NCBI GenBank assembly: GCA_035315685.1
Contig: DATFXR010000233.1
Location: 4,203-68,202, forward strand
DNA from: Vicinamibacterales bacterium
GTDB taxonomy: Bacteria > Acidobacteriota > Vicinamibacteria > Vicinamibacterales > CAVVIG01
DNA length: 64,000 nucleotides
Reading direction: 5' to 3'
Shown here: positions 5,712 through 63,966 of the stretch, one piece after another
Layout: every line of letters begins with the position of its first letter
Position numbering within the stretch: position 1 is the stretch's first letter
The notes under the pieces: model-generated
Told to the model about the DNA's origin: nothing
Seen by the model: only the letters and a program-made list of their open reading frames with translations
Database searches by the model: none
Translations under genes and position numbers: made by a program

Positions 5712-6937
5712 GCGGTCCGGATCGCAATCGCGTCGACGACGCGGCAGGCCCGGGCCACGGCCTCATCACGCGTCGCGCCGGTGGTGATCACGAACCCGGC
5801 GCGCTTGGTGTGATCGGTGACGGGATATACGGTTTCGTCGCGCTGCACGAACAACCCGAGCCGATGCACCCACGGCATCCCGGCGAACTCGTCGGCGCCG
5901 TCGATCGCCGTGACTCGACCCGGCCGCGGAAAGAAGTAGCGAATCGCGACGCCGCGGTGCCATCGCGGGCGCAGCTCCTCCGCCGCCACTGGTTCGCCGA
6001 GCGCCAGGCGAATCGCGCAACCGATCAGATCGACGCCGGTCCCGAGCGGGACCTGATCGGTCGACATCCACCCACCCGACAGCCGCGCCGCGATCTCGAT
6101 CACGTATGGACCGCGATCGGTCCACACCATGTCACCCTTTACGCTGCCGCTCGTGATGCCCATCGCGCGTCCCGCGTCCATCGCCGTTGCGGCGATGCGG
6201 CGCTGCGCCGGCGGGGCGATCGCCGATGGCTGCTCGCCCCCGTTCTCGACGATGTACGGCGCAAACCTGTCGAGGTACTCATAATTGCGATCGATGAACC
6301 CGCACGTCGTCCCCTCGCCGGATACGAGCAGGCCCTCGGTGCTGATCTGCGGCCCGGTCAGGTACTCCTCGACCATCACGTCGCCGCGCCGCGACTGGCT
6401 CGTCGCGTGCGAGAAGGCCCAGGCGAGATCGGTCGTTTCGGTGAGCCGCAGGACGCCGCGGGCGCCGCGTCCATCGATCGGCTTGAGCACGAGCGGAAAG
6501 CCGCGCTCGCGCACGACGTCCGTCAATTCGCCGAGCGACTCGATCGCCTGAAACCACGGGACCGGAATGTTCGCGCGCCGGAAGGCTTCTTTCATCGCGA
6601 GCTTGTCGGCCGCGAGCCGCGCGCTCTCAATCGGAATGCCCGGAAGGTTCAGCGCCGCTGCGACACCCGCGACGGTCATCGGCACGTCCGCCGCCATGCA
6701 CATCACGCCGTCGATCGGACGCTTCGTCCGATGAAACTTCGTCGCGGCGGCGACCGTTCCATCGACGTCGTAGGTATTCGCCACGACTGCAGCGTCGGCG
6801 ACCGCGAATCCAGGCGCGTTCGGGTTCATGTCGCTGACGACGACGTGCAACCCCAGCGCGCGCGCCCGCTGGATGCCGGGGACAGCTTCAGCGCCACCAC
6901 TCACGACCCAGAGGGTTCTGTCGCGTGTCACTGTCAT
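5708..6937 (-). CDS. ATP-grasp domain carboxylate-amine ligase
   Basis: 409 aa. The pre-ATP-grasp Rossmann-like N-terminus is followed by DKLAMKEAFRRANIPVPW...FPLVLKPIDGRGARGV...VMVEEYLTGPQISTEG. ATGA overlap with the GH57-like gene at 5708-5711. Confidence 0.7.
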   Translation of the reverse strand: MTVTRDRTLWVVSGGAEAVPGIQRARALGLHVVVSDMNPNAPGFAVADAAVVANTYDVDGTVAAATKFHRTKRPIDGVMCMAADVPMTVAGVAAALNLPGIPIESARLAADKLAMKEAFRRANIPVPWFQAIESLGELTDVVRERGFPLVLKPIDGRGARGVLRLTETTDLAWAFSHATSQSRRGDVMVEEYLTGPQISTEGLLVSGEGTTCGFIDRNYEYLDRFAPYIVENGGEQPSAIAPPAQRRIAATAMDAGRAMGITSGSVKGDMVWTDRGPYVIEIAARLSGGWMSTDQVPLGTGVDLIGCAIRLALGEPVAAEELRPRWHRGVAIRYFFPRPGRVTAIDGADEFAGMPWVHRLGLFVQRDETVYPVTDHTKRAGFVITTGATRDEAVARACRVVDAIAIRTA

Positions 6938-17530: not shown

Positions 17531-18334
17531 TCACTCGAGCAGAAAACGTAGCGCACTTTCGAGACGGCGCGCCCATGACGCTTCGTTGTGGCGGCCGCCC
17601 GGGTCCTCGACGTAGCGGACCCGTGGCTTGCCTTCGTGCCGCCCGCGTCGATCGACGCCGTCGTATGCCGCCCGGGTCCGGCGCGCGCGGCGGTCGCGGG
17701 CGAATCCCTTTCGCGCGAGCAGCCGTCCCAGCCGCCGCGCGTCGCGCAGCGTGCCGGTCCCTTCATGCAGACCGACGTCCACGTAGAGGCGCCCGTGCGG
17801 CGTGCGCGCATCCCGCACGAAATCGAGAATCGCGCCCTGACCGAACCAGATCGACGGGCTCATCGCGCCGGCGCGGCCGAAGATCGACGGAAACCGGAAA
17901 TACGCGTACAGGCTGACCAGGCCGCCCATCGACGAGCCCAGCATCGCCGTCTCGTCGCGATCGACGCGTGTACGAAACAGCCGATCGATGCGCGGCTTGA
18001 TGGTCGCGGTCAGAAACTCGAGATAGGCGTCGGCGCAGCCGCCGCCGTGCCGTCGGTCGGGAAAGGGACTGTACTCGGCCAGCCGCGCGTCGCCCATGTT
18101 GTGGATGCCGACGACGATCGCCTCGAGTCCGGATCCGGCAAGGCGTTCGAGGGTGACGTCGAGATCCCATGTGCCGGCGAACGCGGTGGCGGGGTCCGAC
18201 AGGTTCTGGCCGTCCTGCATGTAGACGACCGGATAGCGGCGGCCGCTCGGATAAGACGAAGGCAGATAGACGTCGATGGTGCGGCGATTCTTCAGTTGCG
18301 GCGACCAGACGCGCTCGAGCGTGCGCTTCGTCAT
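17531..18334 (-). CDS. Esterase-family alpha/beta hydrolase (PF00756-like 'putative esterase')
   Basis: 267 aa. IDVYLPSSYPSGRRYPVVYMQDGQN...MLGSSMGGLVSL (GxSxG). ATGA overlap with the upstream ATP-grasp gene. Confidence 0.75.
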   Translation of the reverse strand: MTKRTLERVWSPQLKNRRTIDVYLPSSYPSGRRYPVVYMQDGQNLSDPATAFAGTWDLDVTLERLAGSGLEAIVVGIHNMGDARLAEYSPFPDRRHGGGCADAYLEFLTATIKPRIDRLFRTRVDRDETAMLGSSMGGLVSLYAYFRFPSIFGRAGAMSPSIWFGQGAILDFVRDARTPHGRLYVDVGLHEGTGTLRDARRLGRLLARKGFARDRRARRTRAAYDGVDRRGRHEGKPRVRYVEDPGGRHNEASWARRLESALRFLLE

Positions 18335-19560
18335 TCGAGCGGACGCTCGGGTGGCGGCGCCGTCGCGAAGAAGTCGCGGTAGAAGCGCGTGGCGTAGTCG
18401 GCGACGAGCGCCTCGACCCGCTGCGCGTCGGGTGACGCCACGATCACGCCCGCGTGATGCTCTTTGCGAATCGTCTTCGCGATCTCACGATCGGTGTACG
18501 CCGACATGTCCGGCGTCTCCTGCCGGGCGAGCGTCAGGACGATGGCTGAGAAATCGGCGCGCCGTGGCGGCACGACGTAGTCGTCTCCACCGACTTCGAT
18601 CTTCGCCCATTCATGCCACAGGTTGATACCGGTCGCCGCCTCGATCGTGTCCACGATGAACGCCCCGCCAACGCGCGCGGACGTTTCGAGAAACACGAAT
18701 CCTCGGTCCGGCTGAAGCCGGACTTCTGCCCCTCCTGCCCCTCCCGCCTCTCCTGCCCCTCCCGCCCGAATGAACTCCGAGTGCGAGACGCCGCGCTGCA
18801 GGCCGAGCATCGCCTGCAGCCGGCGATTCAGCGCCAGCAGGGCCGCCCCTTCCTCCGAGTCGTCTGCCAGCCGCCGGGTGATGAACAGCCCGCCTTCGTG
18901 CGCGATCTCCATCGGCGGCCGGCCGTACTTGAAGGCGGTGGCGAACACGACCGCTCCGTTCCAGACAATCGAGTCCACGTGGTAGACGTCGCCGGCGACG
19001 AACTGCTCGAGGACGGTGTTCGATCGACCGTCGCCGGCGGCGTGGAGCGCCGGCCACAGCTCTTCGTGCGACCGGACTTTTCTGATGCCGATCGCCGCAG
19101 CCGACGAGCGCGGCTTCAGCACCCACGGCGGCGGCACCCGCGCCGCCCACGCGTTGACCGACTCGTCGTTGAACGTCGCGGTGAATTCGGGCACCGGAAT
19201 GCCCGCTCCGCGTGCGGCGATCCGCATCGCCAGCTTGTCGCGAAAGCGGCTCGCTGTAGTCCGGCCCATGCCGCTGACCTGCAGGTGGTCGCGGATCATC
19301 GCGGCCAGCTCGACGTCGAAGTCGTCGAGCGCGGCAACGCGATCGATCGCGTGGCGACGCGCGATCTCGTCGACGCGCCGCTTCACGCCCGCCTCGTTTG
19401 CGTCACGCGCGATGGTATGAAGCTCCGCGATCGAGTCGCGCGGCCATGCGGCGTTCGCGAGCGAATCGGCGGTGAGCAGCAGCACCGTCGCACCCAGACG
19501 GTTCGCCTCGCGCAGGAATGGGTCACCCTTGAAGTAGGTCGCGATACAGAGGATCGTCAT
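18331..19560 (-). CDS. ATP-grasp domain ligase
   Basis: 409 aa. DKLAMRIAARGAGIPVPEF...PWVLKPRSSAAAIGIRKV...LEQFVAGDVYHVDSIV...SHSEF...FLETSARVGGAFI. Confidence 0.75.
   Translation of the reverse strand: MTILCIATYFKGDPFLREANRLGATVLLLTADSLANAAWPRDSIAELHTIARDANEAGVKRRVDEIARRHAIDRVAALDDFDVELAAMIRDHLQVSGMGRTTASRFRDKLAMRIAARGAGIPVPEFTATFNDESVNAWAARVPPPWVLKPRSSAAAIGIRKVRSHEELWPALHAAGDGRSNTVLEQFVAGDVYHVDSIVWNGAVVFATAFKYGRPPMEIAHEGGLFITRRLADDSEEGAALLALNRRLQAMLGLQRGVSHSEFIRAGGAGEAGGAGGAEVRLQPDRGFVFLETSARVGGAFIVDTIEAATGINLWHEWAKIEVGGDDYVVPPRRADFSAIVLTLARQETPDMSAYTDREIAKTIRKEHHAGVIVASPDAQRVEALVADYATRFYRDFFATAPPPERPLE
18726..18767. repeat. C-rich nonamer repeat inside the ATP-grasp CDS (encodes AGGAGEAGGAGGA)
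   Basis: CTGCCCCTC CTGCCCCTCCCGCCTCTC CTGCCCCTCCCGCCC. It is in frame and located between the SHSEF and FLETSARVGG motifs. Confidence 0.85.
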
Positions 19561-19604
19561 ATACTGACGCTCGGCTGAGGCCTTCGCGCTACCTTACGCC
19601 CGCC

Positions 19605-20333
19605 ATGCACCGCGAATTTCACCGCTGGTACTCCGACCGCCTCGGTCGCGACATGGGCATCGTCGTCCACGGCCACTGGGGACCGCCGATGATCCTGTTC
19701 CCGACCACCGGCGGCGACGAGTGGGAGTACGAGCGCCAGTCGATGATCGGCGCACTCGCGGAGTTCATCGACGCGGGGCGGATCAAGACGTTCTCGGTCA
19801 CCGTCAATCACGGTGATTCGTTCGGCAACCGCCGCGCGCATCCGCTGCACCGCAGCTGGATGCAGCGGCAGTATGATGCCTACGTCCGCTACGAAGTCGT
19901 TCCGTTCGTCCGCAATCACTGCCGCTCCGGTGACATCGGCATCTGGACGATGGGGGCGTCGCTCGGCGGGTATCACGCCGCGAATACGCTGTTCAAATAC
20001 CCCGACGTCGTCAAGCGCTGCTTCGCGCTGTCGGGCGTGTACGACATGAAACAGTTCATGGACGGCGCCTACGACGACAACTTCTACTTCAACAACCCGG
20101 TCGATTACATGGCGAGCGCGTCGGATCCATGGCAGCTCGGCCATCTGACGTCGTGCGATATTCATCTCGTCACCGGCAGCGGCCCGTGGGAGAAGAGCGA
20201 CGAGGCATACCGGATGTCGCACATCCTCGCAAGCCGCGGCATCCACCATCATCTGGACGACTGGGGCCCGCTCGGCGGCCACGACTGGCCTTACTGGAAG
20301 CATCAGCTCCGCGAATATCTTTCGCGGAGCTGA
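19605..20333 (+). CDS. Esterase-family alpha/beta hydrolase (second copy, divergent from the ATP-grasp gene)
   Basis: 242 aa. GIVVHGHWGPPMILFPTTGG...TMGASLGGYHAAN (GxSxG)...HDWPYW. Confidence 0.7.
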   Translation: MHREFHRWYSDRLGRDMGIVVHGHWGPPMILFPTTGGDEWEYERQSMIGALAEFIDAGRIKTFSVTVNHGDSFGNRRAHPLHRSWMQRQYDAYVRYEVVPFVRNHCRSGDIGIWTMGASLGGYHAANTLFKYPDVVKRCFALSGVYDMKQFMDGAYDDNFYFNNPVDYMASASDPWQLGHLTSCDIHLVTGSGPWEKSDEAYRMSHILASRGIHHHLDDWGPLGGHDWPYWKHQLREYLSRS

Positions 20334-20339
20334 TGCGCG

Positions 20340-21380
20340 TCAGAGATCGAAGCGGCTCAGATTGTAGCGGCCGCTTTCGATTACCTGTTCGTCATCGATC
20401 CACACGTTGCATTCGCGGGTGAGCACGTCGATGTGCGTGCGCGACTTCCACGGCGCGCCGGTCTGGCTGCCATACGGATCGCCGAACGCGAGATGGACGC
20501 CCGGCACCTTCTCGTCCTGCAGCAGGACGCCGATCATGTCGTCGAGCGCGATGTTGGTGCCGAACGCGAGCTCGCCGACGCGGTCGCTGTGCTCGTCGGT
20601 GTGGCAGTACGCCCAGAACTCCTGCTCCAGATCTTGGCGCACGCAGTGCGCCGCCCGCAGACGACCGCCGCGGATCTCGAGCGTGAGCGGCGTCGCGCGC
20701 AGGTCGCCGTACTTCGGACCGAAGTAGTCGCCGGCAGTGCCGTCGCAGACGAACACACCGTCCACGCTCTTCGGCGTCGTGAACACCTCGCCAGCCGGAA
20801 GATTCGACCAGTAGCGGCGGTTGATCAGGCCGCTGGTCTTCACCCACGTGTAGCTCCGATCGAAGGCGGCGGTGAGCGCGGTGCCGCCGGGCGTTTCGAC
20901 GCGCAGCCGCCGGGCGCGCGTCATGCGCTCGCACAACCGCTGGCTGAGCCGATCGACGAGGCGGTAGTCGGCGCGCATCCCCTGCTGCATGATCTGCGGC
21001 GTCACTCCGACCATGTGCGCGTAGCGGATCCCGCGGCGCTCGACCACCGACACAATCGACATTCGAGCGCCGAGCTCGCCCTGTTGCGGCTGCACGCACA
21101 GGATCCCGGCGTCGGCCTGCTCGAGCGCGTCGAGGACCTCCGGCGGCGCGGCCGTCATCGGCCGATTGGCGACCCTCTCGATGAGGACGCCCTGCCACGG
21201 CGCGCCGACTTCGTCGAGCGCCGCGGCGATGCTCGCGGCGACGTCGCCGCTCGCTTCGTCGGCGATCAATGCGACCCGCTCGTCGGGCTGAATCGCCAGG
21301 CAGACCGAGATCGCGTTCCGCGCGCCCGCTTCGAGGGCGGGCGTGACCGTTCCGAACATCGCTGGGCTCATGCGATCCAT
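20340..21380 (-). CDS. Aminopeptidase, M29 (aminopeptidase T/PepS)-like
   Basis: Start at ATG 21380 (or 21371). GGTALTAAFDRSYTWVKTSG...LPAGEVFTTP...GELAFGTN...EKVPGVHLAFGDPY...HIDVL. Confidence 0.7.
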   Translation of the reverse strand: MDRMSPAMFGTVTPALEAGARNAISVCLAIQPDERVALIADEASGDVAASIAAALDEVGAPWQGVLIERVANRPMTAAPPEVLDALEQADAGILCVQPQQGELGARMSIVSVVERRGIRYAHMVGVTPQIMQQGMRADYRLVDRLSQRLCERMTRARRLRVETPGGTALTAAFDRSYTWVKTSGLINRRYWSNLPAGEVFTTPKSVDGVFVCDGTAGDYFGPKYGDLRATPLTLEIRGGRLRAAHCVRQDLEQEFWAYCHTDEHSDRVGELAFGTNIALDDMIGVLLQDEKVPGVHLAFGDPYGSQTGAPWKSRTHIDVLTRECNVWIDDEQVIESGRYNLSRFDL

Positions 21381-21390
21381 TGTACGGAGG

Positions 21391-21459
21391 GTGTGGGACC
21401 GATCGGCCCATGGGGCGGGTCCTCCCCCTACCCAGCCTATGGGCCCATCGGTCCTACAC
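21391..21459. repeat. Imperfect 23-nt-arm hairpin
   Basis: GTGTGGGACCGATCGGCCCATGG (21391-21413) against CTATGGGCCCATCGGTCCTACAC (21437-21459), 20 of 23 complementary. The right arm overlaps the TAG stop of the upstream gene. Confidence 0.8.
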
Positions 21460-22806
21460 TCCTGAGGACCCCACCGCAAACGCCGCGACCTGGCCTCCGC
21501 CCGATGTGACGTTCGCAAGGCCGCTCGAACTCAGTCGCGTGAGAAAACCCGCGAGCTTGCCGCGAAACACGTACGGCGCGAAATCGACCAGCATGTCGCG
21601 CATCGCGACGCCGCCGCCGTCGCAGATCGGAAACAACTCGCGGCGGACGGCGATCTTCTCCTGCGCGACCCAGCCGCGCGACCGCTCGGCGATCGCGCGG
21701 GCGATTGCCGCATCCCACTCTGCTTCGGTCGTCTCCCAGCCGAGCGTCACGCCGGTGCCGCCGTACTCGTCATTCGGCTTGATCACGAACCGATCGCGGT
21801 GCTCGCGCAGATGGGGCACCAGATCGATCGACGCGCCATGGCGACTGATGCGGCGTTCTTCGACGAGCGCCGTCCACGGGACATGCCGGCGAATCATCGC
21901 GCGCTCGTCATCGGAGAAGAGCGGCGCGTAGCGCTCGTCGGTGAGCACCGCGAAGAACGCTTTCTTGTGTGGAATCTTGCAGCGCAGCGTGTTGGCAACG
22001 CAGACCGCGCGCGCCTCGTAAGCCTGCAGCAGCGCGCGGCACTCCGCCTCGCGCGCGAGGATGTCGTTGATCAGCACACGCCGGTAGACGAGATCGATCG
22101 CGATACCGTCGGCAATCAGACGGCCACGATCGAACACGAGGTCGCGCGGGTCGCAGATTGTCGTCGGCACGCCAGCCGCCGTGAAGGCGTCGCGCAACAG
22201 CTCGAACTCGCTGTAGGTCGGCACGTCGCGCCAGTCGACGATCGCCATCTGCGGTGTGGCGGCGGTGCCTCCCCATTCGCGATAGCTGGCAACGAGCGCC
22301 GGCAGGATCGCATCGACGGGTCGATACAGGCGAGCGTCGATCTGTTCACGGAACCCCGTCATCAGCGGCAGCTCCGCGAACAGCTCGGCGAGTCCCTGGC
22401 TGTAGGCCGGACCGGCTGGCGACTCGGCGTTGTACTCTGCAAACTGCAGTGACTCCGGCAGGATGAACGCATCGGCTCGGGCTGCCGTGCTCGTCGTGTT
22501 GTAGCCGGGATCGATCCGTGCGAGCCTGATCTCGTCGTCGCTCAGCGCGAGATCCGCGAGCAGCCCCGGCCGCTCCAACGCCGCACTGGCCACCCGTTCG
22601 CCCAGCGTCCACAACATCTCGACCACCGTCCTCACGCGCGCCTCGTCGGCGGCGGTCAGAAAGAAAGGACGGAGGAATGGACAGAGGACGCGGTCGCCAA
22701 AGCGCAGCCGCCGCTCGCGCTGGGCCGTAGTGATGCGGGTACAGAGAGCTCCCGCGTCTTCACGGCTCAACAGATCGTTCCACGTCGTGGCGGCGTCGAG
22801 CATCAT
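21454..22806 (-). CDS. Circularly permuted type-2 ATP-grasp protein
   Basis: 450 aa. ADAFILPESLQFAEYNAESPAGPAY...VIKPNDEYGGTGVTLGW...WVAQEKI match my memory of the CP_ATPgrasp_2 family. Confidence 0.7.
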   Translation of the reverse strand: MMLDAATTWNDLLSREDAGALCTRITTAQRERRLRFGDRVLCPFLRPFFLTAADEARVRTVVEMLWTLGERVASAALERPGLLADLALSDDEIRLARIDPGYNTTSTAARADAFILPESLQFAEYNAESPAGPAYSQGLAELFAELPLMTGFREQIDARLYRPVDAILPALVASYREWGGTAATPQMAIVDWRDVPTYSEFELLRDAFTAAGVPTTICDPRDLVFDRGRLIADGIAIDLVYRRVLINDILAREAECRALLQAYEARAVCVANTLRCKIPHKKAFFAVLTDERYAPLFSDDERAMIRRHVPWTALVEERRISRHGASIDLVPHLREHRDRFVIKPNDEYGGTGVTLGWETTEAEWDAAIARAIAERSRGWVAQEKIAVRRELFPICDGGGVAMRDMLVDFAPYVFRGKLAGFLTRLSSSGLANVTSGGGQVAAFAVGSSGV

Positions 22807-22807
22807 G

Positions 22808-22946
22808 CAATTTAAGAATTAGGAAGTAAGAAGTAAGAATTCGTGAACTCAGTTCGGCACATTCGCGAGATCAACGATGTCGCTGGCTGCCCTTGTCTTC
22901 GAACGGATGTACGAATTCTAAATTCTTAATTCCAAATTCTTAATTC
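22808..22946. repeat. AT-rich CAATT-AAGAATT palindromic element, copy 2 (complete)
   Basis: Left arm CAATTTAAGAATTAGGAAGTAAGAAGTAAGAATTCGTG (22808-22845) and right arm TACGAATTCTAAATTCTTAATTCCAAATTCTTAATTC (22910-22946). It fills the whole 138-nt gap between two ATP-grasp genes. Confidence 0.9.
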
Positions 22947-23898
22947 ACACCGGCGTCCCCGTGCCCATGCCGGTCATGGCAGCCCACTGCGGCCACGATT
23001 GCTGGGGCGCGCCGTGCAGGGTGCGATCGATGGCGAGCTCCGCCATCTTCTGGACGGCGAGCTCGAAATAGTGCGGCGTGATCCGGTCGCGCTCGAAGTC
23101 GGGCGCCGGATTCAGAAAGTCGATCGCATACGGCACGCCGTCCTCGACCGCGAACTCGATCGTGTTCATCTCGTAGCCGAGCGCGGTGTTCAGCGTGCGG
23201 GCATCGCGGACGATCCGCTCGCCGAGCTCCGCCGAGAGATACGCGTGGTTCACGTTGTAGCGCCGCTGGTGCGGATCGTAGGCGACCGGAATGATGTCGG
23301 TCTTGCCGAACGTGAAGCAGCGCACGTACTGATCGAAGTGGATGAACTGCTGGAGCGTCATGCAGTATGGCGCGGTGCCGTCGTAGGCGCGAATCAGCTC
23401 GTCCCGATCGTTGACCTTGTACACGTGTTTCCACCCGCCGCCCGAGTACGGCTTCAGGATCGCGGGGCGGCCGACGTAGTCGAGCAGCCCGTCCCAGTCG
23501 ATCGGATAGCCGAGGTTGTGCAGCGACTCGGCCGTGAGATCGATGTCGGGCGGATAGGCCTTCTGCGGCAGCACGACCGTCTTCGGGACCGCGACGCCGA
23601 GCTTCTGCGCCACCGAGTAGTTGAAGAACTTGTCGTCGGCGGTCCACCAGAACGGGTTGTTGATCACATAGCTGCCTTCGAGCACCGCGTGCTTCAGATA
23701 GGCACGGAAGTATTCGATCTCGTGCGAGATCCGGTCGACGATCACGTGATAGCCGGACGGCTCGCCCATCTTCGTGCCGGCGAGCGTCACGAACTCCGCG
23801 GTGATCCCGTGCTCGCGGCCGAGCGTGTTCACGCGATCGAGGAACGCCGGCGGAAACGCGTACTCGCGGCCGCACAACAATCCGACCTTTGCGCTCAT
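22945..23898 (-). CDS. ATP-grasp ligase (RimK/glutathione-synthetase-like)
   Basis: 317 aa. DKFFNYSVAQKLGVAVPKTV...GRPAILKPYSGGGWKHVYKV...MTLQQFI...NTIEFAVEDGVPYAIDFLNP. Confidence 0.7.
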   Translation of the reverse strand: MSAKVGLLCGREYAFPPAFLDRVNTLGREHGITAEFVTLAGTKMGEPSGYHVIVDRISHEIEYFRAYLKHAVLEGSYVINNPFWWTADDKFFNYSVAQKLGVAVPKTVVLPQKAYPPDIDLTAESLHNLGYPIDWDGLLDYVGRPAILKPYSGGGWKHVYKVNDRDELIRAYDGTAPYCMTLQQFIHFDQYVRCFTFGKTDIIPVAYDPHQRRYNVNHAYLSAELGERIVRDARTLNTALGYEMNTIEFAVEDGVPYAIDFLNPAPDFERDRITPHYFELAVQKMAELAIDRTLHGAPQQSWPQWAAMTGMGTGTPV

Positions 23899-25022
23899 AC
23901 TCTGTACGCCCTCGCCGACTGCTCCACGCTCTCACGAGTCTCTTCGACCAGCGATTGCACGACCGCCCGGAGGTCGCCGGTGTGGCGATACACCTCCACC
24001 TGGCGCTCGGCGCTGGTGCCGTCCGACAGAATCTTCTTCACGTACTCGATTTCGCGCCGGCTCCCGAGCTGATCGACGGCATCGTCGACGAACTCGAGCA
24101 GCTCGAGCGCCAGATCGCGCATCGGCACCTCACGGCGCTTGCCGAAGTCGATCAGCTTGCCGTCGATGCCCCACCGCGCGGCACGCCATTTGTTCTCTTC
24201 GATCAACGCGCGATGATACCGGCGGAAGCCCAGGTTCCTTTCACGCAGCTTGTAGAGCTTGACGATGATTGCCTGCGCGAGCGCGGCAATCGCGATCGAT
24301 GCCCGCGGCGCCGTCGGCACGTCGCAGATGCGGAACTCCAGCGTGCCGAACAGCGGATGCGGGCGCAGATCCCACCAGATCTTCTTGGCGTTGTCGATGC
24401 AGTGCAGCTCGACGAGCATCTCGACGTAGCCCTCGTACTCGCTCCACGACCGGAAATTGTCGGGGATGCCGGTGCGCGGGAAACGGCGGAACACCGTTGT
24501 CCGGAACGACTTCAGCCCGGTGTCGCGCCCCAGCCAGAACGGCGAGCTCGTCGACAACGCCAGCAGGTGCGGCAGGAAGTAGCGCGCCTCGTTCATCAGA
24601 TCGATCATCGTCTGTCGATCGGGCACCGCGACGTGCACGTGCAGGCCGAAGATCAGCAGCGATCGCGCGAGCTGCTGCAGCTCCTCGACGATGTGCTCGT
24701 AGCGCTCGCCCGGCGAGATTACCTGATCCACCCAGTTCGAGAACGGATGCGTGCCGGCGGCGGCGATGCGCAGCCCGGTGCGTTCGGCCGCGTCCGCGAG
24801 ATCGCGGCGGTTGCGGATGATCTCTTCGGCCAGCTCGGCGACGTTGGCGCAGATCTTCGTGCCGACCTCGACGATCGACTGATGCATCTCGCGCTTGATC
24901 GCGTCGCCGAACGCCGGCGCGCTCGACGCGAGCAGCTCGGAGACGTGCGAGCGCAGCTCCCACGTATTCGGATCGACGATCTGGAATTCTTCCTCGACAC
25001 CGACGGTGAAGGCGTGGTCCAC
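23895..25022 (-). CDS. Carboxylate-amine ligase, GCS2/YbdK family
   Basis: 375 aa. The N-terminus FTVGVEEEFQIVDPNTWEL...MHQSIVEVGT...AAGTHPF...GLHVHVAVPD is the typical GCS2 pattern. ATGA overlap with the downstream ATP-grasp gene. Confidence 0.8.
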   Translation of the reverse strand: MDHAFTVGVEEEFQIVDPNTWELRSHVSELLASSAPAFGDAIKREMHQSIVEVGTKICANVAELAEEIIRNRRDLADAAERTGLRIAAAGTHPFSNWVDQVISPGERYEHIVEELQQLARSLLIFGLHVHVAVPDRQTMIDLMNEARYFLPHLLALSTSSPFWLGRDTGLKSFRTTVFRRFPRTGIPDNFRSWSEYEGYVEMLVELHCIDNAKKIWWDLRPHPLFGTLEFRICDVPTAPRASIAIAALAQAIIVKLYKLRERNLGFRRYHRALIEENKWRAARWGIDGKLIDFGKRREVPMRDLALELLEFVDDAVDQLGSRREIEYVKKILSDGTSAERQVEVYRHTGDLRAVVQSLVEETRESVEQSARAYRV

Positions 25023-26078: not shown

Positions 26079-27013
26079 CGCGACGGGTCGAGCAGCGCAT
26101 CGTCGCTCACGGCGAGTCGAGCCGAGGCCGCGAACGTGGCGGCATCGAGCGGACCGACGGCTTCGGCGGCGAGCGCCGACTCGAGTTCCGCACGCGTCCG
26201 CGCGCCGGTGAGAACGCTGGCCACGTACGGCACCGAGAGGCAGAACCGCATCGCCGCTTCAGGCAGTGCGTCCCACGATCCGCCCGCGATCAGATCGCGT
26301 GCGCGAGCGGCCGCGGCGCGCACCGGCGCCAGCGTCTCCGGCAGCCATTGGGCTTTTGGCGTCAGCGCGCCCTTGAGAAATGCGGAACGGACGACGACGC
26401 CCACACCAGCCGCAGCGGCGGTTGGCAGCACGCTGTGGCGCCCGCGCTGGTCGAGGGCGTTCAATGCGATCTGCACGACGCCGTACTCGCCTGACGTGAT
26501 CACCGCCAGCGCCGCGTCCTCACCGTAGACGGAGGCACCGATCACACGCACCATTCCTCGCTGCTTCGCGTCGAGCAGCGCGTCCGTGATGGCGCGGTTT
26601 TCGATCGTCTCGCGCGTCGCATTGTGGATCTGGACGATGTCGATCGCGTCGCGGCGGATCGCGCGGCGCGACGATTCGAGCGAAGCGGCGACGATGCTCG
26701 AGAGGTCAGACACCCCCGGCGCTTCTGCAGCGGACGGCAAGGTGATCTTCGTGGCGATGATCGCCCGTGGATCGCGGCCGGCGGCGACACCGACGATGCG
26801 CTCGCTGTCGCCGTACGCCGGCGCCGTATCGATCAACGTGATGCCGCGATCGAGCGCCGCACCGATCAACGCGAGGGCGTCACGCTCGTCGGGCGGCCCG
26901 AATTCCCCCGGCGCTGCAATACCGTAATCGACGCCGAGCGAGACGGTGCCGAGCGACAGGGCGCTCACGACGAGACCGGTGTTGCCCAGCGGGCGGAAAT
27001 CCACGGCAGGCAA
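26063..27013 (-). CDS. Aldo/keto reductase
   Basis: FRPLGNTGLVVSALSLGT...LIDTAPAYGDSE...VQIHN. The start is either the TTG at 27013 inside the AT-rich repeat or the GTG at 27004. Confidence 0.8.
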   Translation of the reverse strand: MPAVDFRPLGNTGLVVSALSLGTVSLGVDYGIAAPGEFGPPDERDALALIGAALDRGITLIDTAPAYGDSERIVGVAAGRDPRAIIATKITLPSAAEAPGVSDLSSIVAASLESSRRAIRRDAIDIVQIHNATRETIENRAITDALLDAKQRGMVRVIGASVYGEDAALAVITSGEYGVVQIALNALDQRGRHSVLPTAAAAGVGVVVRSAFLKGALTPKAQWLPETLAPVRAAAARARDLIAGGSWDALPEAAMRFCLSVPYVASVLTGARTRAELESALAAEAVGPLDAATFAASARLAVSDDALLDPSRWPIP

Positions 27014-27110
27014 TTAAGAATTAGGAAGTAAGAATTAGGAATTCGTGCATCTGTTCTGCAGCGCTTTTGAGTTCACGCATTCTTAATTCTTACTTCTTAA
27101 TTCTTAATTA
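27011..27110. repeat. AT-rich CAATT-AAGAATT palindromic element, copy 3 (complete)
   Basis: Left arm CAATTAAGAATTAGGAAGTAAGAATTAGGAATTCGTG and right arm CACGCATTCTTAATTCTTACTTCTTAATTCTTAATTA, 33 of 37 complementary. It overlaps the TAA stop at 27108-27110 and the candidate TTG start at 27013. Confidence 0.9.
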
Positions 27111-28586: not shown

Positions 28587-29444
28587 TTACGGAGTCCACG
28601 TCGCGCGCACTGCGCGCGTGGGCCGCAGTCCATCGCGCGGATCCGCACGCCATGGACGGTCCGCAACTTCGGCCTCGACCGGCCGCTTGTCCCCCGTTCC
28701 GTCGGCGGCCACACCGTGATGAATCGCTTCGATCACCGGCGCAATCTGTCGCGGCAGCCAGCAATGCCCCCCGCTGAACTCGGCACCGGTGCCGTCCAGA
28801 TCGAGATGGAACTCGACCATTTCCGCACGCCAGTGGTGCACCGCTCGATAGATCACCGCGGGACTGACGCTGTGATCCGACCATCCCACACGCGTATGCG
28901 TCGCAGCGCGAATCGTGTCGATTGCCGCGAGGTTGCACTGCTCGACCGGTGTCGGATATCCGGAGGTGCAGTGGAGCAGTACCGGGTCGGCGCATCCAGC
29001 GTCGCGGAGCACGTCGGCGGCATGGGACACTTCGTCTATCGTGGCCATGCCGGTCGCCGCGACGACCGGCTTGCCGGTTGCAGCACACGCACGCAACAGG
29101 TCGTCCCACACCAGCTCGTACGACGCGACCTTGTAAAAGTCGACGTGCCGGGCGAGCACCTCCACCGCGCGAAGCGAAAACGGCGTGCACGCGAACTGGA
29201 TGCCGAGCTCACGGCTCCGCGCCGCCAGCGGCGCGAGAAATTCCTCGGGCAGCTCCCATTGCGCGCGCGCGCGATGCGTCGGGCTCTTCGCGAGAATCTC
29301 CGGCGCGAACAGCTCGTCGACCTTGAATAGCTGGAACTTCACGCCTGCGCAACCGATCCGGGACGCGGTCTCGACGAACGCGAGCGATCGACCGAGGTCG
29401 CGGCCGTGATTGCTCGACACTTCGGCGACGAACCGCACCGCCAT
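28587..29444 (-). CDS. NeuB/PseI-family nonulosonic acid synthase-like protein, without a SAF domain
   Basis: FVAEVSSNHGRDL...GVKFQLF...FYKVASYEL...GKPVVAATGMATIDE...LLHCTSGYPTP...VGWSDHS. About 285 aa with no C-terminal SAF-like segment. TGATG junction with pseC. Confidence 0.7.
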   Translation of the reverse strand: MAVRFVAEVSSNHGRDLGRSLAFVETASRIGCAGVKFQLFKVDELFAPEILAKSPTHRARAQWELPEEFLAPLAARSRELGIQFACTPFSLRAVEVLARHVDFYKVASYELVWDDLLRACAATGKPVVAATGMATIDEVSHAADVLRDAGCADPVLLHCTSGYPTPVEQCNLAAIDTIRAATHTRVGWSDHSVSPAVIYRAVHHWRAEMVEFHLDLDGTGAEFSGGHCWLPRQIAPVIEAIHHGVAADGTGDKRPVEAEVADRPWRADPRDGLRPTRAVRATWTP

Positions 29445-30664
29445 CAACGGTACGCGGAGACGACCTTCGTCACCGCCTCCACGACGTCACTGATGTCGGC
29501 GGTCGTCATCGCCGGGAACAGCGGCAGCGTCACGATCTGTTCGTAGGCGGCTTCCGCGATCGGACAGAGGCCGGGACCGGTGCCGAATCTCTGCCGGTAG
29601 AACGGGTGATAGTGAATCGGAATGTAGTGGACGTTGACGCCGATGTTCTCGCGCCGCATCGCGGTGAAGAACGTCGCGCGATCGCAGGTGAGCGCATTCG
29701 TATCGACGCGCACCACATACAGGTGATGGGCGTGGGACACGCGCGGCCGGACGGCCAGCGGTGTGACTTCGGGTATCTGCGCGAATGCCGCGTCGTAGTC
29801 ACGGGCAATCGCCTGCCGCCGCGCGATGTTCGCCGGCAGCTTCGCCAGCTGGCTGCGGCCGAGCGCGGACTGGATGTCGGTCAACCGGTAGTTGTAGCCG
29901 AGCTCGACGATCTCGTAGATCCAGGATCCGCGAGCGCTCCGGTCGCGATGATCGGCCGTGATGCCATGGTTGCGAAACGACCGCATGCGCGACGCGAGCG
30001 CTTCGTGGTCCGTCACGATCCCGCCGCCTTCGCCGGTCGAGACGTGCTTGACTGGATGAAAGCTGAACACCGACAGATCCGCCAGCGTCCCGACCAGCGC
30101 GCCGCCGGCGTCTCGCGCGCCAATCGAATGACACGCATCGGCGACGATGCGGACCGGGGAATCGGCGCGTGCACGTGCCGCGATCGCGCGAAGGCGATCG
30201 TACTCGCACGGTTGACCGCCATAGTCGACGGCGACAATCGCTCGCGTCCGCGGTGTGATCAGCTCCGCGACGGCGTCGGGATCGATCAGCAGCGTGCGCG
30301 GATCGACGTCGGCGAAGATCGGCGTGCCGCCCTGGTAGACAACGGCGTTGGCCGACGCCGCGAAGGTGATCGGCGGAACGATCACTTCGTCGCCCGGACC
30401 GATGCCGAGCGCGAACATCGCCGTGTGGAGTGCCGCCGTGCCGTTGCTGACGACGACGGCGTGCGCGGCGCCGGTCGCGCTGGCGAGCGCCGATTCGAAG
30501 TCGGCGACGGTCGGTCCGCTGGTCAGCCAGTCCGATCGCAGCACTCGCACGACGGCGGCGACATCGTCATCGTCTATCGAGTGCCGTCCGTACGGCAGCA
30601 GTTCGGTGCGGACCGGTGTTCCGCCATGCAGCGCCAGCTGCGCGACTTTCAGATCCTCGGGCAC
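29444..30664 (-). CDS. pseC: DegT/DnrJ/EryC1-family sugar aminotransferase (PseC-like)
   Basis: GTG start at 30664 (VPEDLKVAQLALHGGTPVRTELLPYGRHSIDDDDVAAVVRVLRSDWLTSGP...). Contains SFHPVKHVSTGEGG. The 973-aa track ORF is an upstream read-through artefact. Confidence 0.8.
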   Translation of the reverse strand: MPEDLKVAQLALHGGTPVRTELLPYGRHSIDDDDVAAVVRVLRSDWLTSGPTVADFESALASATGAAHAVVVSNGTAALHTAMFALGIGPGDEVIVPPITFAASANAVVYQGGTPIFADVDPRTLLIDPDAVAELITPRTRAIVAVDYGGQPCEYDRLRAIAARARADSPVRIVADACHSIGARDAGGALVGTLADLSVFSFHPVKHVSTGEGGGIVTDHEALASRMRSFRNHGITADHRDRSARGSWIYEIVELGYNYRLTDIQSALGRSQLAKLPANIARRQAIARDYDAAFAQIPEVTPLAVRPRVSHAHHLYVVRVDTNALTCDRATFFTAMRRENIGVNVHYIPIHYHPFYRQRFGTGPGLCPIAEAAYEQIVTLPLFPAMTTADISDVVEAVTKVVSAYR

Positions 30665-30704
30665 GTGGTCTAGCTTACCGCGGCGGCGGCGGCCGGTTGA
30701 ACGG

Positions 30705-30710
30705 TATAGT
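30705..30710 (+). promoter_or_regulatory. Candidate -10 box (TATAGT) for a leaderless or near-leaderless wzx transcript
   Basis: TATAGT lies 8 nt upstream of the GTG start at 30719 in a 54-nt divergent intergenic region. No good -35 element at 17-nt spacing. Confidence 0.25.
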
Positions 30711-30718
30711 GTACGAGC

Positions 30719-32245
30719 GTGAACCGATTGCTCGCGCGCCTCGGCGTGCATCGACGCGAACACATCTCGGTCGCGCGCGACTTCTCGATCTACTCCGCCG
30801 TCAACATCTTCTCGCTCGTACTGCTGTTCAGCACGAACCTCTGGCTGCGGCGCTTCGTCGGACCGTACGTCGCCGGCCTGTGGACGGCACTCGAGCTGCT
30901 GCCCGGCTATGCGACCTACGCGCATCTCGGCATCATCAATGCGGCCGAGCGCGAGTTGCCGTTCCTTCTCGGCGCGGGCCGCACGCGCGACTTCGACGGA
31001 CTGAAAGACACGCTGTTCTGGGCGACGAACGCGCTGGGTGGTGCGCTCGCGGCGCTCACGCTCGGAGCCGCGCTGCTGTTCCGCGACCGCCTGTCGCATG
31101 ACACGTTCGTCGGTCTGCTGGCGTACGCGCCGTGCGTGTGGGCGCAGCTGGTTGCGACCTACTTGGTGGTCCTCTACCGGGCGCGCAAACGCTTCGTCGA
31201 GTTGAGCGGACGTCAGGGTGCCGCCAATCTCGCGAAGGCGTTGCTGCTGATCTCCGCGGGGACTGCGTTCGGTCTGTACGGCATACTCGCTGCGGAGCTG
31301 GCAAGCTTCGCGGTCCTCATCGCGATGCTGGCAGGCGGCCTCCGCGAGACGTTCGCGCGTGTCTTCGAGTCTGCGCGATTGCCGGCGCTGGTCGCTGGCG
31401 GGCTGCCGATCCTCGCCGGCGGGCTTGCCTTCGAAACGCTGCGGCCCGGCGGCGCCAGCGGGGCGGATCAGACGGTCATCCTTGCCACGCTCGGCAAGAC
31501 GCCGCTCGGCGTCTACAGCATCGCCTCGATCGTCTGCCAGGGTCTGTATTACCTGCCCAACGCGCTCTCGATCGTGATGTATCCGCGCTTTCAGGAGCGC
31601 TACGGGCAGACGCAGTCGACCGACTCGCTGCGGCGATTCGTCGAGCTGCAGCTGCACGTGCTCGCGGACGTCCTGCTCGCAGCGATCGCGGTCCTCTTCG
31701 TCGCGCTGCCGGCGGCGATCCGCGCGTTCTTTCCGGCCGACTGGAGCGGCGCGATCGCGCCGCTGCGCGTGATGCTCGTCGCGACCTACTTCATCTCGCT
31801 CGCGCCGCCAGGCGGTCAGCTGCTGCTGACGATCCGCAAGCAGATGCAGGTGCTGCTGCTGGCGCTGCCATGCACCGGGCTTGGTTTCGCCGCGGCGTAC
31901 GTGGGCGCGGCGTACGGGCTTGTCGGCGTCGCCACCGGCATTGCGCTGGCGTGCTTCGCCGAGTTCCTCGCGGTCAACGCGTACGCGCTGTCGCATTTTG
32001 CGCGCGCGCAGACGGTCGCTGTCGAGATTGGCCGGCTGACGGTTACGGCGGCGGCATGGCTGGGTGCGGCGGTGCTGATCGAGCGGCTGGTCCCGCCGGG
32101 ACCGTGGCCGGCGAACACGCTCGGCGGCTGGCCGCTGCTCATCGTCGGTCTGGTGAGCCTGCCCCTTCTGCGGCGCGCGCTCCGGCGAATCCAGTCTCCG
32201 CAGTTTTCCACAGGTCCGCAGTTTTCCACAGGGGGTCGGGAATAG
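30719..32245 (+). CDS. wzx: Polysaccharide flippase (Wzx/MOP superfamily)
   Basis: 508 aa with about 12-14 hydrophobic helices and typical oligosaccharide-flippase composition. The last ~15 codons (SPQFSTGPQFSTGGRE) are encoded by the repeat array. Confidence 0.65.
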   Translation: MNRLLARLGVHRREHISVARDFSIYSAVNIFSLVLLFSTNLWLRRFVGPYVAGLWTALELLPGYATYAHLGIINAAERELPFLLGAGRTRDFDGLKDTLFWATNALGGALAALTLGAALLFRDRLSHDTFVGLLAYAPCVWAQLVATYLVVLYRARKRFVELSGRQGAANLAKALLLISAGTAFGLYGILAAELASFAVLIAMLAGGLRETFARVFESARLPALVAGGLPILAGGLAFETLRPGGASGADQTVILATLGKTPLGVYSIASIVCQGLYYLPNALSIVMYPRFQERYGQTQSTDSLRRFVELQLHVLADVLLAAIAVLFVALPAAIRAFFPADWSGAIAPLRVMLVATYFISLAPPGGQLLLTIRKQMQVLLLALPCTGLGFAAAYVGAAYGLVGVATGIALACFAEFLAVNAYALSHFARAQTVAVEIGRLTVTAAAWLGAAVLIERLVPPGPWPANTLGGWPLLIVGLVSLPLLRRALRRIQSPQFSTGPQFSTGGRE

Positions 32246-32505
32246 TTTTCGAGTGGGGCCGAAAACTATTCCCGACCCCTTGTGGAAAACCCGAGGGCGG
32301 CAGCCGTCCACAGGGGGTCGGGAATCGTTTTTTTCGATTGCGACAAAATCGGCCGGAAATCTCACGTCGGACCGTCCGCGAACAAGGTTTCCACAGGGGG
32401 TCGGGAACAGTTTTCGATTCCGCGGTGTCAGGACTCGAAACGATTCCCGACCCCCCTGTGGAAAACTGCGTGCCGCGAAAACGATTCCCGACCCCCTGTG
32501 GAAAA
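32198..32505. repeat. Cluster of 6 full and 1 partial ~30-nt units GTTTTCCACAGGGGGTCGGGAAT.GTTTTCGA in mixed orientation (REP/BIME-like)
   Basis: Units: 32198-32214 (+, partial), 32221-32252 (+), 32260-32290 (-), 32307-32337 (+), 32387-32417 (+), 32435-32466 (-), 32476-32505 (-). The pairs 32221/32260 and 32387/32435 form hairpins. Confidence 0.9.
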
Positions 32506-37069: not shown

Positions 37070-37963
37070 GTGAAACTTTCCATCGTCATCCCGACCTATA
37101 ACGCGCACGAGTGGATCCAGGGTTGCATCGACTCGATCAGGCTGCACCGCCCCTCGTGCGACTACGAGATCATTGTCGTCGACGATCGCTCGAGCGACGA
37201 CACGGTGGAGATCGTGCGGCGGATGTATCCGGACATCCTGGTGTTTGCCAACGAACGGAACATCGGCTTCGGCAAGACGGTCAACGCCGGCCTGGGCGCC
37301 GCCCGCGGCGAGTACGTCCTCGTGTTGAACAACGACACCTGGATGCATGAGGACGCGCTCGACGCGATGATCGGCTACCTCGACGCGCACCGCGACACCG
37401 GCATCGTCGGACCCAGAGTGCTGAACAGCGACGGTTCGCTGCAGCAGCAGTGCCGCCGGCGCATTCCGACGCCGGGCGCTGCCCTCCTCTATTTCAGCGG
37501 CGTCGCGAAACTGTTTCCGAAGAACCCGCGCATCGCCGGCTACCTGATGACGGCGGCCGACGAACATCAGACGACCGAAGTCGATTCGGTGTCAGGCGCC
37601 TGCCTGATGGTGCGGCGCGAGGTGCTCGACGCGATTCACGGCTTCGACCCGGAGTACTACCTGTACGGCGAAGACATGGATTTCTGCTGGCGGACGAAAC
37701 TGGCGGGCTGGAAGGTGGTGTACTTTCCCGGCGCCGCGATCACGCATTTCGGTGGCCAGGGCGGCACCGGGAAGAAGAAGATCTACGCGACGATCGAGTG
37801 GCACCGTGCGATGTGGATCTTCTACCGCAAGCACCGCGCGCCGACGGTCGCGTTTCCAGAGCGCGCCCTGGTCTACTCCGGCATTGCGCTGAAGACCGCG
37901 GTCGCCGTCGCGCTCAATGCCGTCAGGCGATCCGGAACGCCGGGAACGGCGAAGCCGCAGTAA
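37070..37963 (+). CDS. Glycosyltransferase family 2
   Basis: KLSIVIPTYNAHEWI...IIVVDDRSSDDT...LNNDT...YGEDMDFCWR. Confidence 0.85.
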   Translation: MKLSIVIPTYNAHEWIQGCIDSIRLHRPSCDYEIIVVDDRSSDDTVEIVRRMYPDILVFANERNIGFGKTVNAGLGAARGEYVLVLNNDTWMHEDALDAMIGYLDAHRDTGIVGPRVLNSDGSLQQQCRRRIPTPGAALLYFSGVAKLFPKNPRIAGYLMTAADEHQTTEVDSVSGACLMVRREVLDAIHGFDPEYYLYGEDMDFCWRTKLAGWKVVYFPGAAITHFGGQGGTGKKKIYATIEWHRAMWIFYRKHRAPTVAFPERALVYSGIALKTAVAVALNAVRRSGTPGTAKPQ

Positions 37964-37970
37964 GCGACGC

Positions 37971-46734: not shown

Positions 46735-46783
46735 CAGCGCATCCCAGCCATCATCGCGTCCGCCGCGGGGCACCGCTCGGCGA

Positions 46784-63933: not shown

Positions 63934-63966
63934 TTAAGAAGTAAGAATTTAGAAGTAAGAATTCCT
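63931..63966. repeat. AT-rich CAATT-AAGAATT element, copy 4 (left arm; the window ends before any partner arm)
   Basis: CAATTAAGAAGTAAGAATTTAGAAGTAAGAATTCC lies immediately upstream (minus strand) of the first glycosyltransferase gene. Confidence 0.85.

Follow-up and report, generated by a model that had tools for sequence, protein, structure and literature searches.

What a bacterium makes, or takes apart, with four carboxylate-amine ligases encoded next to a peptidase and two esterases is the question raised by a seven-gene block at positions 17531–25022 of a 64,000-nucleotide (nt) stretch of Vicinamibacterales DNA, hereafter referred to as the window. The block encodes seven soluble enzymes: a GCS2/YbdK-family ligase (GCS2), a small non-permuted ATP-grasp ligase outside the named families (the orphan grasp, Rk), a circularly permuted ATP-grasp ligase (CP grasp), an M29-like aminopeptidase, an L-amino-acid-ligase-like ATP-grasp (AG), and the two α/β hydrolases Est1 and Est2. 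With a probability of about 0.55, the block is a self-contained cytoplasmic module that works independently of non-ribosomal peptide synthetases (NRPSs) and makes, then trims or turns over, a small γ-glutamyl-type oligopeptide or amide. This reading is based on the protein families, on intact and invariant catalytic motifs, on operon-like packing, and on genetic linkage, from which we infer the substrates, the order of the steps, and the product.

Conservation of the block in Acidobacteriota

Relatives of the block were gathered by scanning the CP grasp against one genome per GTDB species, which yields 318 relatives; counts out of 80 refer to the best 80 loci among these, 79 from Acidobacteriota (Vicinamibacterales, Acidiferrales, and Terriglobales) and one on a contig binned as Dormibacterota, and gene-order counts out of 51 refer to those of the 80 that retain full 10-kb flanks. 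The neighbourhood comparison that a preliminary description of this DNA had proposed as a check was carried out on the latter set, where GCS2, the orphan grasp, the CP grasp, the M29-like gene, and Est2 on the opposite strand stand in the same order in 49 of 51 loci; because the same genes recur in the same order this often, their grouping is more than chance. All seven genes are present in 33 of the 51, and the conserved loci span Vicinamibacterales, Acidiferrales, and Terriglobales. Counted over the 80 loci, the M29-like gene occurs in 74, Est2 in 71, Est1 in 53, and AG in 46, the last two travelling as a pair that has the reverse gene order in Terriglobia. In alignments of 35–76 relatives, each of the seven proteins has invariant predicted catalytic residues.

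The surroundings of the block are far less constant. Clustering of all other ORFs (open reading frames) of at least 90 amino acids (aa) in the 80 loci reveals no non-module neighbour that recurs in more than about 10 of them, and the lesser cases represent lineage synteny. Transporters of the major facilitator superfamily (MFS) flank the module in two separate lineages and belong to two unrelated MFS types; their presence hints weakly at a small-molecule product. Of the best 80 loci a single one is not acidobacterial, namely L031 (labelled Candidatus Dormiibacterota; CP grasp 61% and GCS2 71% identical), and its proteins are as close to the query as those of Acidiferrales, which suggests a recent transfer or a mis-binned contig. 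Two contigs of the metagenome-assembled genome MFD02671.bin.1.46 (L039 and L045) each carry a complete module with the same neighbours, so that either the module is genuinely duplicated or the bin mixes two strains.

A four-gene core outside Acidobacteriota

Distant relatives of the CP grasp, searched among 1.8 billion representative proteins, show the breadth of the family, which comprises 592 clusters at E <1e-30. Three loci from Chloroflexi bacterium AL-W and Roseiflexaceae-type genomes (L082, L088, and L089) hold an operon of an esterase (239 aa), an orphan grasp (~315 aa), a CP grasp, and GCS2, without M29, the core partners in L088 and L089 being assigned from Pfam family and size only. 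The L082 proteins are 36% (CP grasp, by tblastn), 32% (Est2), 46% (Rk), and 57% (GCS2) identical to those of the window, and a cluster representative related to the L082 CP grasp, P0281, shows 38% identity. Another locus, L085, combines the four core genes with a GAT-II amidohydrolase (CP grasp 44%, orphan grasp 66%, GCS2 59%). Elsewhere the association is looser: L084 (CP grasp 39%) retains the orphan grasp and CP grasp only, L087 (31%) places the CP grasp beside a different α/β hydrolase, and in L083 from Nitrospinota (30%) the context is GshB and an oligopeptide-type ATP-binding cassette (ABC) importer.

The recurrence of the operon in Chloroflexi and in L085 therefore identifies esterase, orphan grasp, CP grasp, and GCS2 as the evolutionary unit and the older core; M29, the Lal-like ligase AG, and the extra esterase Est1 are acidobacterial additions. 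The earlier view of a single seven-gene assembly set is thus borne out as far as conserved linkage is concerned, but the set is not indivisible, since its four-gene core is older. The core of L082, L088, and L089 is always flanked by a ~200-aa double-zinc-ribbon (DZR) protein upstream, a ~400-aa unannotated protein downstream, and tandem Flp/Fap pilin genes; in L085, a PIN/Phd-YefM toxin-antitoxin pair (5657–6330) is inserted between the GAT-II gene and the CP grasp.

Gene layout

The GC content of the window is 64–70% throughout (~67%), a level at which spurious ORFs are numerous, and coding ORFs were picked by their third-position GC. The best named protein matches of the window come from Vicinamibacterales. 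Between 17531 and 25022 this procedure retains exactly seven, the same that had been listed before, and both third-position GC and homologues mark them all as genuine genes (Table 1). The two ATGA overlaps described earlier are present in the sequence, one joining the GCS2 stop to the ATG of the orphan grasp (23895–23898) and one joining the AG stop to the ATG of Est1 (18331–18334). Est2, reported as divergent, is indeed the sole plus-strand gene of the block; its start lies 44 nt from the divergent AG start (19560), and the gene is convergent with that of the M29-like protein, for which a start at 21380 gives 346 aa, in agreement with a 348-aa homologue.

Table 1. Genes of the block, the repeat element within it, and two further ligase-type genes of the window.
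Feature	Position	Strand	Length	Remarks
GCS2/YbdK-family carboxylate-amine ligase (GCS2)	23895–25022	−	375 aa	First gene of the block
Orphan non-permuted ATP-grasp ligase (Rk)	22945–23898	−	317 aa	ATGA overlap with GCS2
AT-rich palindromic repeat element	22807–22944	strandless		Between Rk and CP grasp; not a conserved part of the module
Circularly permuted ATP-grasp ligase (CP grasp)	21454–22806	−	450 aa	Modelled fold resembles glutathione synthetase (GS) and GspS
Divergent M29-fold metallo-aminopeptidase-like protein	20340–21380	−	346 aa	
Est2, PF00756 α/β hydrolase	19605–20333	+	242 aa	Cross-phylum core member
AG, L-amino-acid-ligase-like (Lal-like) ATP-grasp	18331–19560	−	409 aa	Accessory
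Est1, PF00756 α/β hydrolase	17531–18334	−	267 aa	Accessory; ATGA overlap with AG
L-amino-acid-ligase-type ATP-grasp, fifth ligase	5708–6937	−		LAL_C2 66 bits
Asparagine-synthase-type amidotransferase	44794–46800	−		Asn_synthase 351 bits plus GATase; in glycan region

Gaps within the block span only 6–138 nt, and those inspected for precursor or carrier genes measure 6, 9, 44, 73, 121, and 138 nt, the largest being taken up by the repeat palindrome. Because the gaps are this short, a precursor or carrier gene inside the block is excluded, and a pathway to ribosomally synthesized and post-translationally modified peptides (of the graspetide/microviridin kind) or one with a LysW-type carrier is ruled out with it. 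No cluster of small ORFs (at least 90 aa) recurs beside the block in the 80 loci, and the gaps leave no room for shorter ones inside. No transporter, carrier, or precursor gene occurs within the module, and inspection of the N-termini by eye reveals no signal peptide on the M29-like protein, Est1, or Est2. An Rfam scan of the whole window returns zero matches and hence no riboswitch clue to the metabolite; promoter and terminator scans give counts equal to the shuffle expectation and are uninformative.

Four ligases

The profile searches that had been proposed for these families place GCS2, the CP_ATPgrasp_2 protein, the M29-like protein, and both PF00756 proteins above the gathering cut-offs and return no RimK (PF08443) match. 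GCS2 is matched over its full length by PF04107 (214 bits, cut-off 21) and NF010039 (527 bits, cut-off 371), so that its initial designation as GCS2/YbdK-like stands on firm ground. Its comparison with the YbdK structures 1r8g and 1tt4 gives E ~1e-50, its identity across 73 related loci is 70–96%, and its N-terminal EEE motif is almost invariant.

The CP grasp had been called a circularly permuted ATP-grasp, and this is upheld by PF14403 (CP_ATPgrasp_2; 39.9 bits, cut-off 32, aligned residues 207–417 only) together with the permuted fold of its AlphaFold model (predicted local distance difference test, pLDDT, 85.8). As modelled, the protein has the permuted ATP-grasp fold found in eukaryotic GS and in GspS. 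The top Foldseek matches are human, yeast, and plant glutathione/homoglutathione synthetases (template-modelling score, TM, 0.66–0.72; E 1e-19 to 1e-16), followed by 3n6x (putative GspS), E. coli GspS, YjfC/YgiC, Cp1B, and TryS; full-length matches with a probability of 1.00 are obtained for 2hgs, 8fbz, 1m0w, 3kal, 3n6x, and 2io7. Among related loci the CP grasp retains 59–87% identity, and an alignment of 76 sequences shows at least 95% conservation at 167 of its 450 positions. The Pfam glutathione synthetase families are not matched even at E<10, and identity in the structural alignment is ~15%; judged from the model, the protein may work like eukaryotic glutathione synthetase, yet it is not a member of that family. 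All of its nearest structural relatives are enzymes that couple a small peptide or acid, through its carboxylate, to an amino acid or polyamine: YgiC and YjfC, for instance, are peptide-spermidine ligases, and the fungal E-64 ligase Cp1B couples epoxysuccinate to an amino acid (PMC12568646). On the function of PF14403/CP_ATPgrasp_2 proteins themselves, nothing was found in the literature.

The orphan grasp is the most conserved component of the block, with identities of 69–95% in Acidobacteriota, 66% in L085, and 46% in Chloroflexi. No Pfam family matches it even at E<10, PF08443 included, and the RimK-type models TIGR00768 (rimK_fam; 32 bits, E 7e-8, cut-off 143) and TIGR02144 both remain below their cut-offs. 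Comparison with the D-Ala-D-Ala ligase 3r23 (E 6e-5) aligns the K-P, SGGG, and E...D..N motifs, hhalign pairs it with the Lal-like ligase at 72% probability (E 3e-5), and residues K149, S152, E248, D260, and N263 are invariant in 53 sequences. By these similarities the protein is an ATP-grasp of a family without a Pfam model; of its previous label, RimK/GshB-like ATP-grasp, the second half holds and the first is over-specific. It has at least 7997 metagenomic homologues, none with a Pfam family and none named beyond one generic ATP-grasp label.

AG, described earlier as an ATP-grasp, shows kinship in the PDB to L-amino acid ligases (4wd3, E 9e-12; 30vh) and then to Ddl/VanA and BacD, but its Pfam scores fall below cut-off: ATPgrasp_N reaches 23.8 bits (cut-off 27), ATP-grasp_4 is likewise sub-threshold, and LAL_C2 does not match. 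NF002563 scores 58 bits, and K149, E262, E292, and R296 are invariant in 43 sequences.

Three hydrolases

The M29-like protein scores 41.1 bits against Peptidase_M29 (PF02073; cut-off 27), and its PDB matches are NicX (7cn3, E 7e-5) and, weakly, AmpS (1zjc). Its residues E198, E270, H296, H316, D318, and Y303 align to the metal ligands of AmpS, and these putative ligands are invariant in 64–65 of 65 relatives. The protein is thus classed as a divergent M29 family member and predicted aminopeptidase, as had been proposed from its sequence; it is 65–93% identical among the loci that carry it and missing from the Chloroflexi operon.

Both esterases had been assigned to PF00756, and both exceed its cut-off of 22 bits and keep a G-x-S-x-G nucleophile. 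Est1 (116 bits) has a GSSMG nucleophile that is invariant in 35 sequences, and its nearest structures are IroE-like/fusarinine C esterases, ferric enterobactin esterase (Fes), BES, and feruloyl esterases (E 2e-10 to 1e-6). Est2 (54 bits) has a GASLG nucleophile elbow that is invariant in 60 sequences, finds no sequence relatives in the PDB, and is 32–37% identical to its homologues in the Chloroflexi and L085 operons. A role of the esterases resembling S-formylglutathione hydrolase was rejected, as neither has such PDB relatives at E<0.01. A siderophore connection, raised by the likeness of Est1 to IroE, Fes, and BES and by an EntS-like MFS protein in ~10 loci, is retained as a sub-possibility only, no receptor or transporter being conserved with the block.

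Glycan surroundings

In the window, the block sits within a ~60-kb glycan region, separated by only 9 nt from a preceding PseG-like gene. The upstream genes of this strand encode the PseG-like protein, an aldo-keto reductase, a class-III aminotransferase, NeuB, and DegT, with PseB-like and Wzy genes beyond, and the block is flanked on either side by genes for methyltransferases, glycosyltransferases, and PMT_2 proteins. The abutment on Pse (pseudaminic-acid) genes is repeated in L002, which is the closest relative, and on a metagenome contig of 218 kb (that of P0045). Over the 80 loci, any Pse gene within 10 kb is found in one, PseG is adjacent in one, and NeuB, DegT, or PseB is adjacent in none; other Vicinamibacterales have unrelated neighbours beside the block, and the Chloroflexi core has no sugar genes nearby. 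Because Pse genes are this rare within 10 kb and the neighbours in other Vicinamibacterales are unrelated, the position of the block in a pseudaminic-acid/polysaccharide island is a lineage-specific placement and not a clue to general function. The suggestion that the ligases decorate the neighbouring nonulosonic acid with amino acids accordingly finds no support in the wider sample.

Two genes outside the block are better candidates for sugar N-acylation. The L-amino-acid-ligase-type ATP-grasp in the left part of the window, whose neighbours are a GH57-like gene, a short-chain dehydrogenase/reductase, a split transketolase, a DXS-like gene, and a methyltransferase, is a better candidate for sugar amino-acylation or modification than the module, and the asparagine-synthase-type amidotransferase is presumably of the kind used by PseA-like enzymes to place acetamidino groups on pseudaminic acid (Table 1). 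No PseF (CMP-sugar synthetase) or PseH is seen among the window genes scanned. A 973-aa ORF at 29444–32365 (−) was discarded as a high-GC artefact of which only the last ~370 aa represent a DegT/PseC-type aminotransferase; on the other strand, 30719–32245 (+) encodes a 508-aa protein without a Pfam match, and a relative has a Polysacc_synt (Wzx-type) flippase in that place. The region further includes four paralogues of large PMT_2 (ArnT/protein-mannosyltransferase-like) membrane glycosyltransferases (37917–40064, 42465–44804, 53428–55083, and 55001–56992) and two DUF218 proteins.

About 10 kb downstream of the module, the JGI contig of P0045 carries, after ThiG and ThiS, a DinB_2 plus FGE-sulfatase gene (EgtB/OvoA-like sulfoxide synthase); in the window, ThiG is found at 1180–1962, and an equivalent EgtB/OvoA-like gene may lie just off the left edge. 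The link between this EgtB-like gene and GCS2 in the P0045 contig is probably coincidental.

The element between the orphan grasp and CP grasp genes is built of 7-nt GAATTAA-type units and forms a long hairpin (dG −50.2 kcal/mol, z −5.4). Three more intergenic sites (1085–1110, 27011–27110, and 63938–63963) carry this unit, giving 16 matches where 0 are expected. In relatives, the corresponding gap holds other species-specific palindromes of 7-nt repeats (L002, L004, L007, L010, and L011) or, in some, none; these palindromes look like REP-type (repetitive extragenic palindromic) or MITE-type (miniature inverted-repeat transposable) elements with a fast turnover.

Proposed pathway and alternative explanations

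In the proposed pathway, the GCS2/YbdK-type ligase would activate a carboxylate, likeliest the γ-carboxyl group of glutamate, as an acyl-phosphate and join it to the amine of a second amino acid. The GS-like CP grasp would then activate the new C-terminal carboxylate and add an amino acid or polyamine, and the orphan grasp would add another residue. In Acidobacteriota, the Lal-type ligase AG may supply or add a further (di)peptide unit, and the esterases and the M29-like aminopeptidase would deprotect, proof-read, or recycle the product. An add-then-remove logic, as in the synthetase/amidase GspS or in EgtA/EgtC, fits this scheme because L085 has a GAT-II enzyme where Acidobacteriota have M29. 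Stepwise, NRPS-independent amide assembly, which had been suggested at the outset, is the most economical account because it accommodates the ligase, peptidase, and esterase families and their strong linkage and because no characterised pathway was found to match; its product and step order stay at the level of a proposal. In line with the earlier remark that no characterised system of this composition could be named, none was found in the literature. The accompanying idea of a γ-glutamyl product or thiol analogue gains some support from the CP grasp model, which is GS-like and belongs to a gene standing close to GCS2, and the product itself is again a conjecture.

Several points weigh against amide assembly as the function. 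Enzymes of the YbdK type are poor γ-Glu-Cys ligases. Three of the seven genes encode hydrolases, which is compatible with a catabolic or salvage role. Identities across classes of 70–96% for GCS2 and 69–95% for the orphan grasp are unusual for secondary metabolism and could, as far as sequences tell, reflect a macromolecular substrate. Moreover, the conserved block includes neither a transporter nor a regulator. In the window, in L002, and on the metagenome contig it abuts Pse genes, and because only 9 nt separate PseG and GCS2 here, the block is probably transcribed together with glycan genes in this lineage. Finally, the AlphaFold model of the orphan grasp, built from an alignment of sequences at least 85% identical, is too poor (pLDDT 52.8) for a fold search or a view of the acceptor site.

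One alternative explanation is C-terminal tagging of a protein or peptide: the ligases would add amino acids, such as glutamates, to a conserved cellular protein encoded elsewhere, as RimK adds glutamates to ribosomal protein S6, and M29 and the esterases would strip the tags. The very high conservation across classes, an orphan grasp that keeps 66% identity where the CP grasp keeps only 44% (a pattern typical of macromolecule recognition), a distant similarity to RimK/LysX (TIGR00768, TIGR02144), and the co-encoded peptidases in a conserved block without an exporter all speak for it. Tagging is nevertheless considered unlikely, as neither the module nor its neighbourhood contains a conserved gene for a target, carrier, or small protein, and the short gaps could not hide one; the RimK and LysX models stay far short of their cut-offs, Pfam RimK gives no match, and the closest structural relatives of the CP grasp all act on small molecules. 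About equally doubtful is a catabolic or salvage function, in which an imported amine, peptide, or ester would be hydrolysed and the pieces γ-glutamylated or re-ligated for assimilation or detoxification, much as amines are γ-glutamylated in some utilisation pathways. Such a function would make sense of the three hydrolases, of the similarity of Est1 to siderophore and feruloyl esterases, of the MFS transporters beside the block in two lineages, and of the Nitrospinota relative (30%), whose neighbours are GshB and an oligopeptide-type ABC importer. It is hard, however, to see why catabolism should need three or four ligases that consume ATP; the block has no conserved oxidoreductase or aminotransferase partner, each of the two unrelated types of transporter is confined to its lineage, and the Chloroflexi core comprises three ligases with one hydrolase.

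Sugar decoration, in which the ligases attach amino acids to the free amino group of a pseudaminic-acid-like sugar and the hydrolases edit the result, is suggested by the PseG-like gene 9 nt away, by NeuB, DegT, and an aminotransferase on the same strand in the ~60-kb glycan region, and by the repeated abutment in L002 and the P0045 contig. It is the least probable of the explanations weighed here and ranks as remote, given that a Pse gene lies within 10 kb in a single locus of the 80, that other Vicinamibacterales, Terriglobia, and Chloroflexi hold the block in unrelated contexts, and that better candidates for N-acylation lie off the block (5708–6937 and 44794–46800). Within the favoured reading of stepwise amide assembly, a bolder and rather improbable version can be formulated: the core would make a γ-glutamyl-based low-molecular-weight thiol or peptidyl-amine, an analogue of glutathione or glutathionylspermidine, and the acidobacterial extras would extend and recycle this product. 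If true, Acidobacteriota and filamentous Chloroflexi would rely on this compound as one of their major redox or metal buffers inside the cell.

Biological significance

Acidobacteriota are among the most abundant soil bacteria, and the CP grasp and the orphan grasp each have thousands of near-identical metagenomic homologues, the annotation of which is limited to generic family labels. Three or four ligases kept at 60–95% identity across classes, with a core that extends to Chloroflexi, point to an important metabolite or modification. Once the module is set apart from the adjoining sugar genes, the place to look for its product is the cytoplasmic metabolome instead of the polysaccharide, and with only four genes the core lends itself to direct heterologous expression and reconstitution in vitro.

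Comparison with known systems

Glutathione biosynthesis resembles the module in pairing a GCS2 enzyme with a ligase whose model lies nearest to eukaryotic GS (2hgs, 1m0w, and 3kal), but the resemblance ends at ~15% identity without a glutathione synthetase Pfam match, and two further ligases and three hydrolases have no counterpart there. The glutathionylspermidine and trypanothione synthetases and YgiC/YjfC, which ligate the C-terminal carboxylate of a peptide to an amine, share the permuted ATP-grasp fold class; GspS couples synthesis to a hydrolase, whereas the window protein has no CHAP amidase domain or GSP_synth Pfam match and in the block the hydrolases are encoded separately and have other folds. 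The fungal E-64 ligase Cp1B (9cjn; Foldseek E 5.5e-13) is likewise a stand-alone GS-like grasp in an NRPS-independent assembly, although it is fungal, uses epoxysuccinate, and works with an amide-bond synthetase and an oxygenase that are missing here (PMC12568646). AG is nearest to the L-amino acid ligases of dipeptide antibiotics (RizA, 4wd3; BacD, 3vmm), which join unprotected amino acids without a carrier; unlike them, it scores below the Pfam cut-offs and shows no LAL_C2, and it belongs to a block conserved across a phylum whereas RizA and BacD occur in sporadic antibiotic clusters.

In ergothioneine biosynthesis, the GCS2 enzyme EgtA adds a γ-glutamyl group that the GAT-II amidohydrolase EgtC later removes. 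The pairing of a GCS2 ligase with an amide hydrolase is common to both systems, and L085 even has a GAT-II enzyme in the module; EgtB and EgtD, however, are not in the block, where the M29-like enzyme occupies the role of hydrolase. A further candidate, the tagging system of a CP ATP-grasp with Alpha-E and transglutaminase proteins, was set aside, as no Alpha-E, transglutaminase, or NTN peptidase occurs among the window genes or the recurrent neighbours.

The closest precedent is an in-silico prediction that Iyer, Abhiman, Burroughs, and Aravind reportedly made in 2009, in which, as in the Pfam entry PF14403, CP_ATPgrasp_2 proteins are said to be linked to GCS2, an α/β hydrolase, a GAT-II amidohydrolase, and an M20 peptidase, with Roseiflexus RoseRS_2616 as the prototype. 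This system, itself a computational prediction only, reportedly anticipates the general idea put forward here. In agreement with it, the CP grasp, GCS2, and an α/β hydrolase are adjacent in the window, in 49 of the 51 full-flank relatives, in Roseiflexaceae-type Chloroflexi, and in L085. The window has neither a GAT-II amidohydrolase nor an M20 peptidase, GAT-II being found in L085 only; the acidobacterial form uses M29 in their place and includes AG and a second esterase, and the 317-aa orphan grasp is not known to be part of the 2009 description. What the present analysis adds to that prediction is the orphan grasp as the top-conserved partner, the seven-gene acidobacterial form, and the near-universal gene order in the sampled Acidobacteriota.

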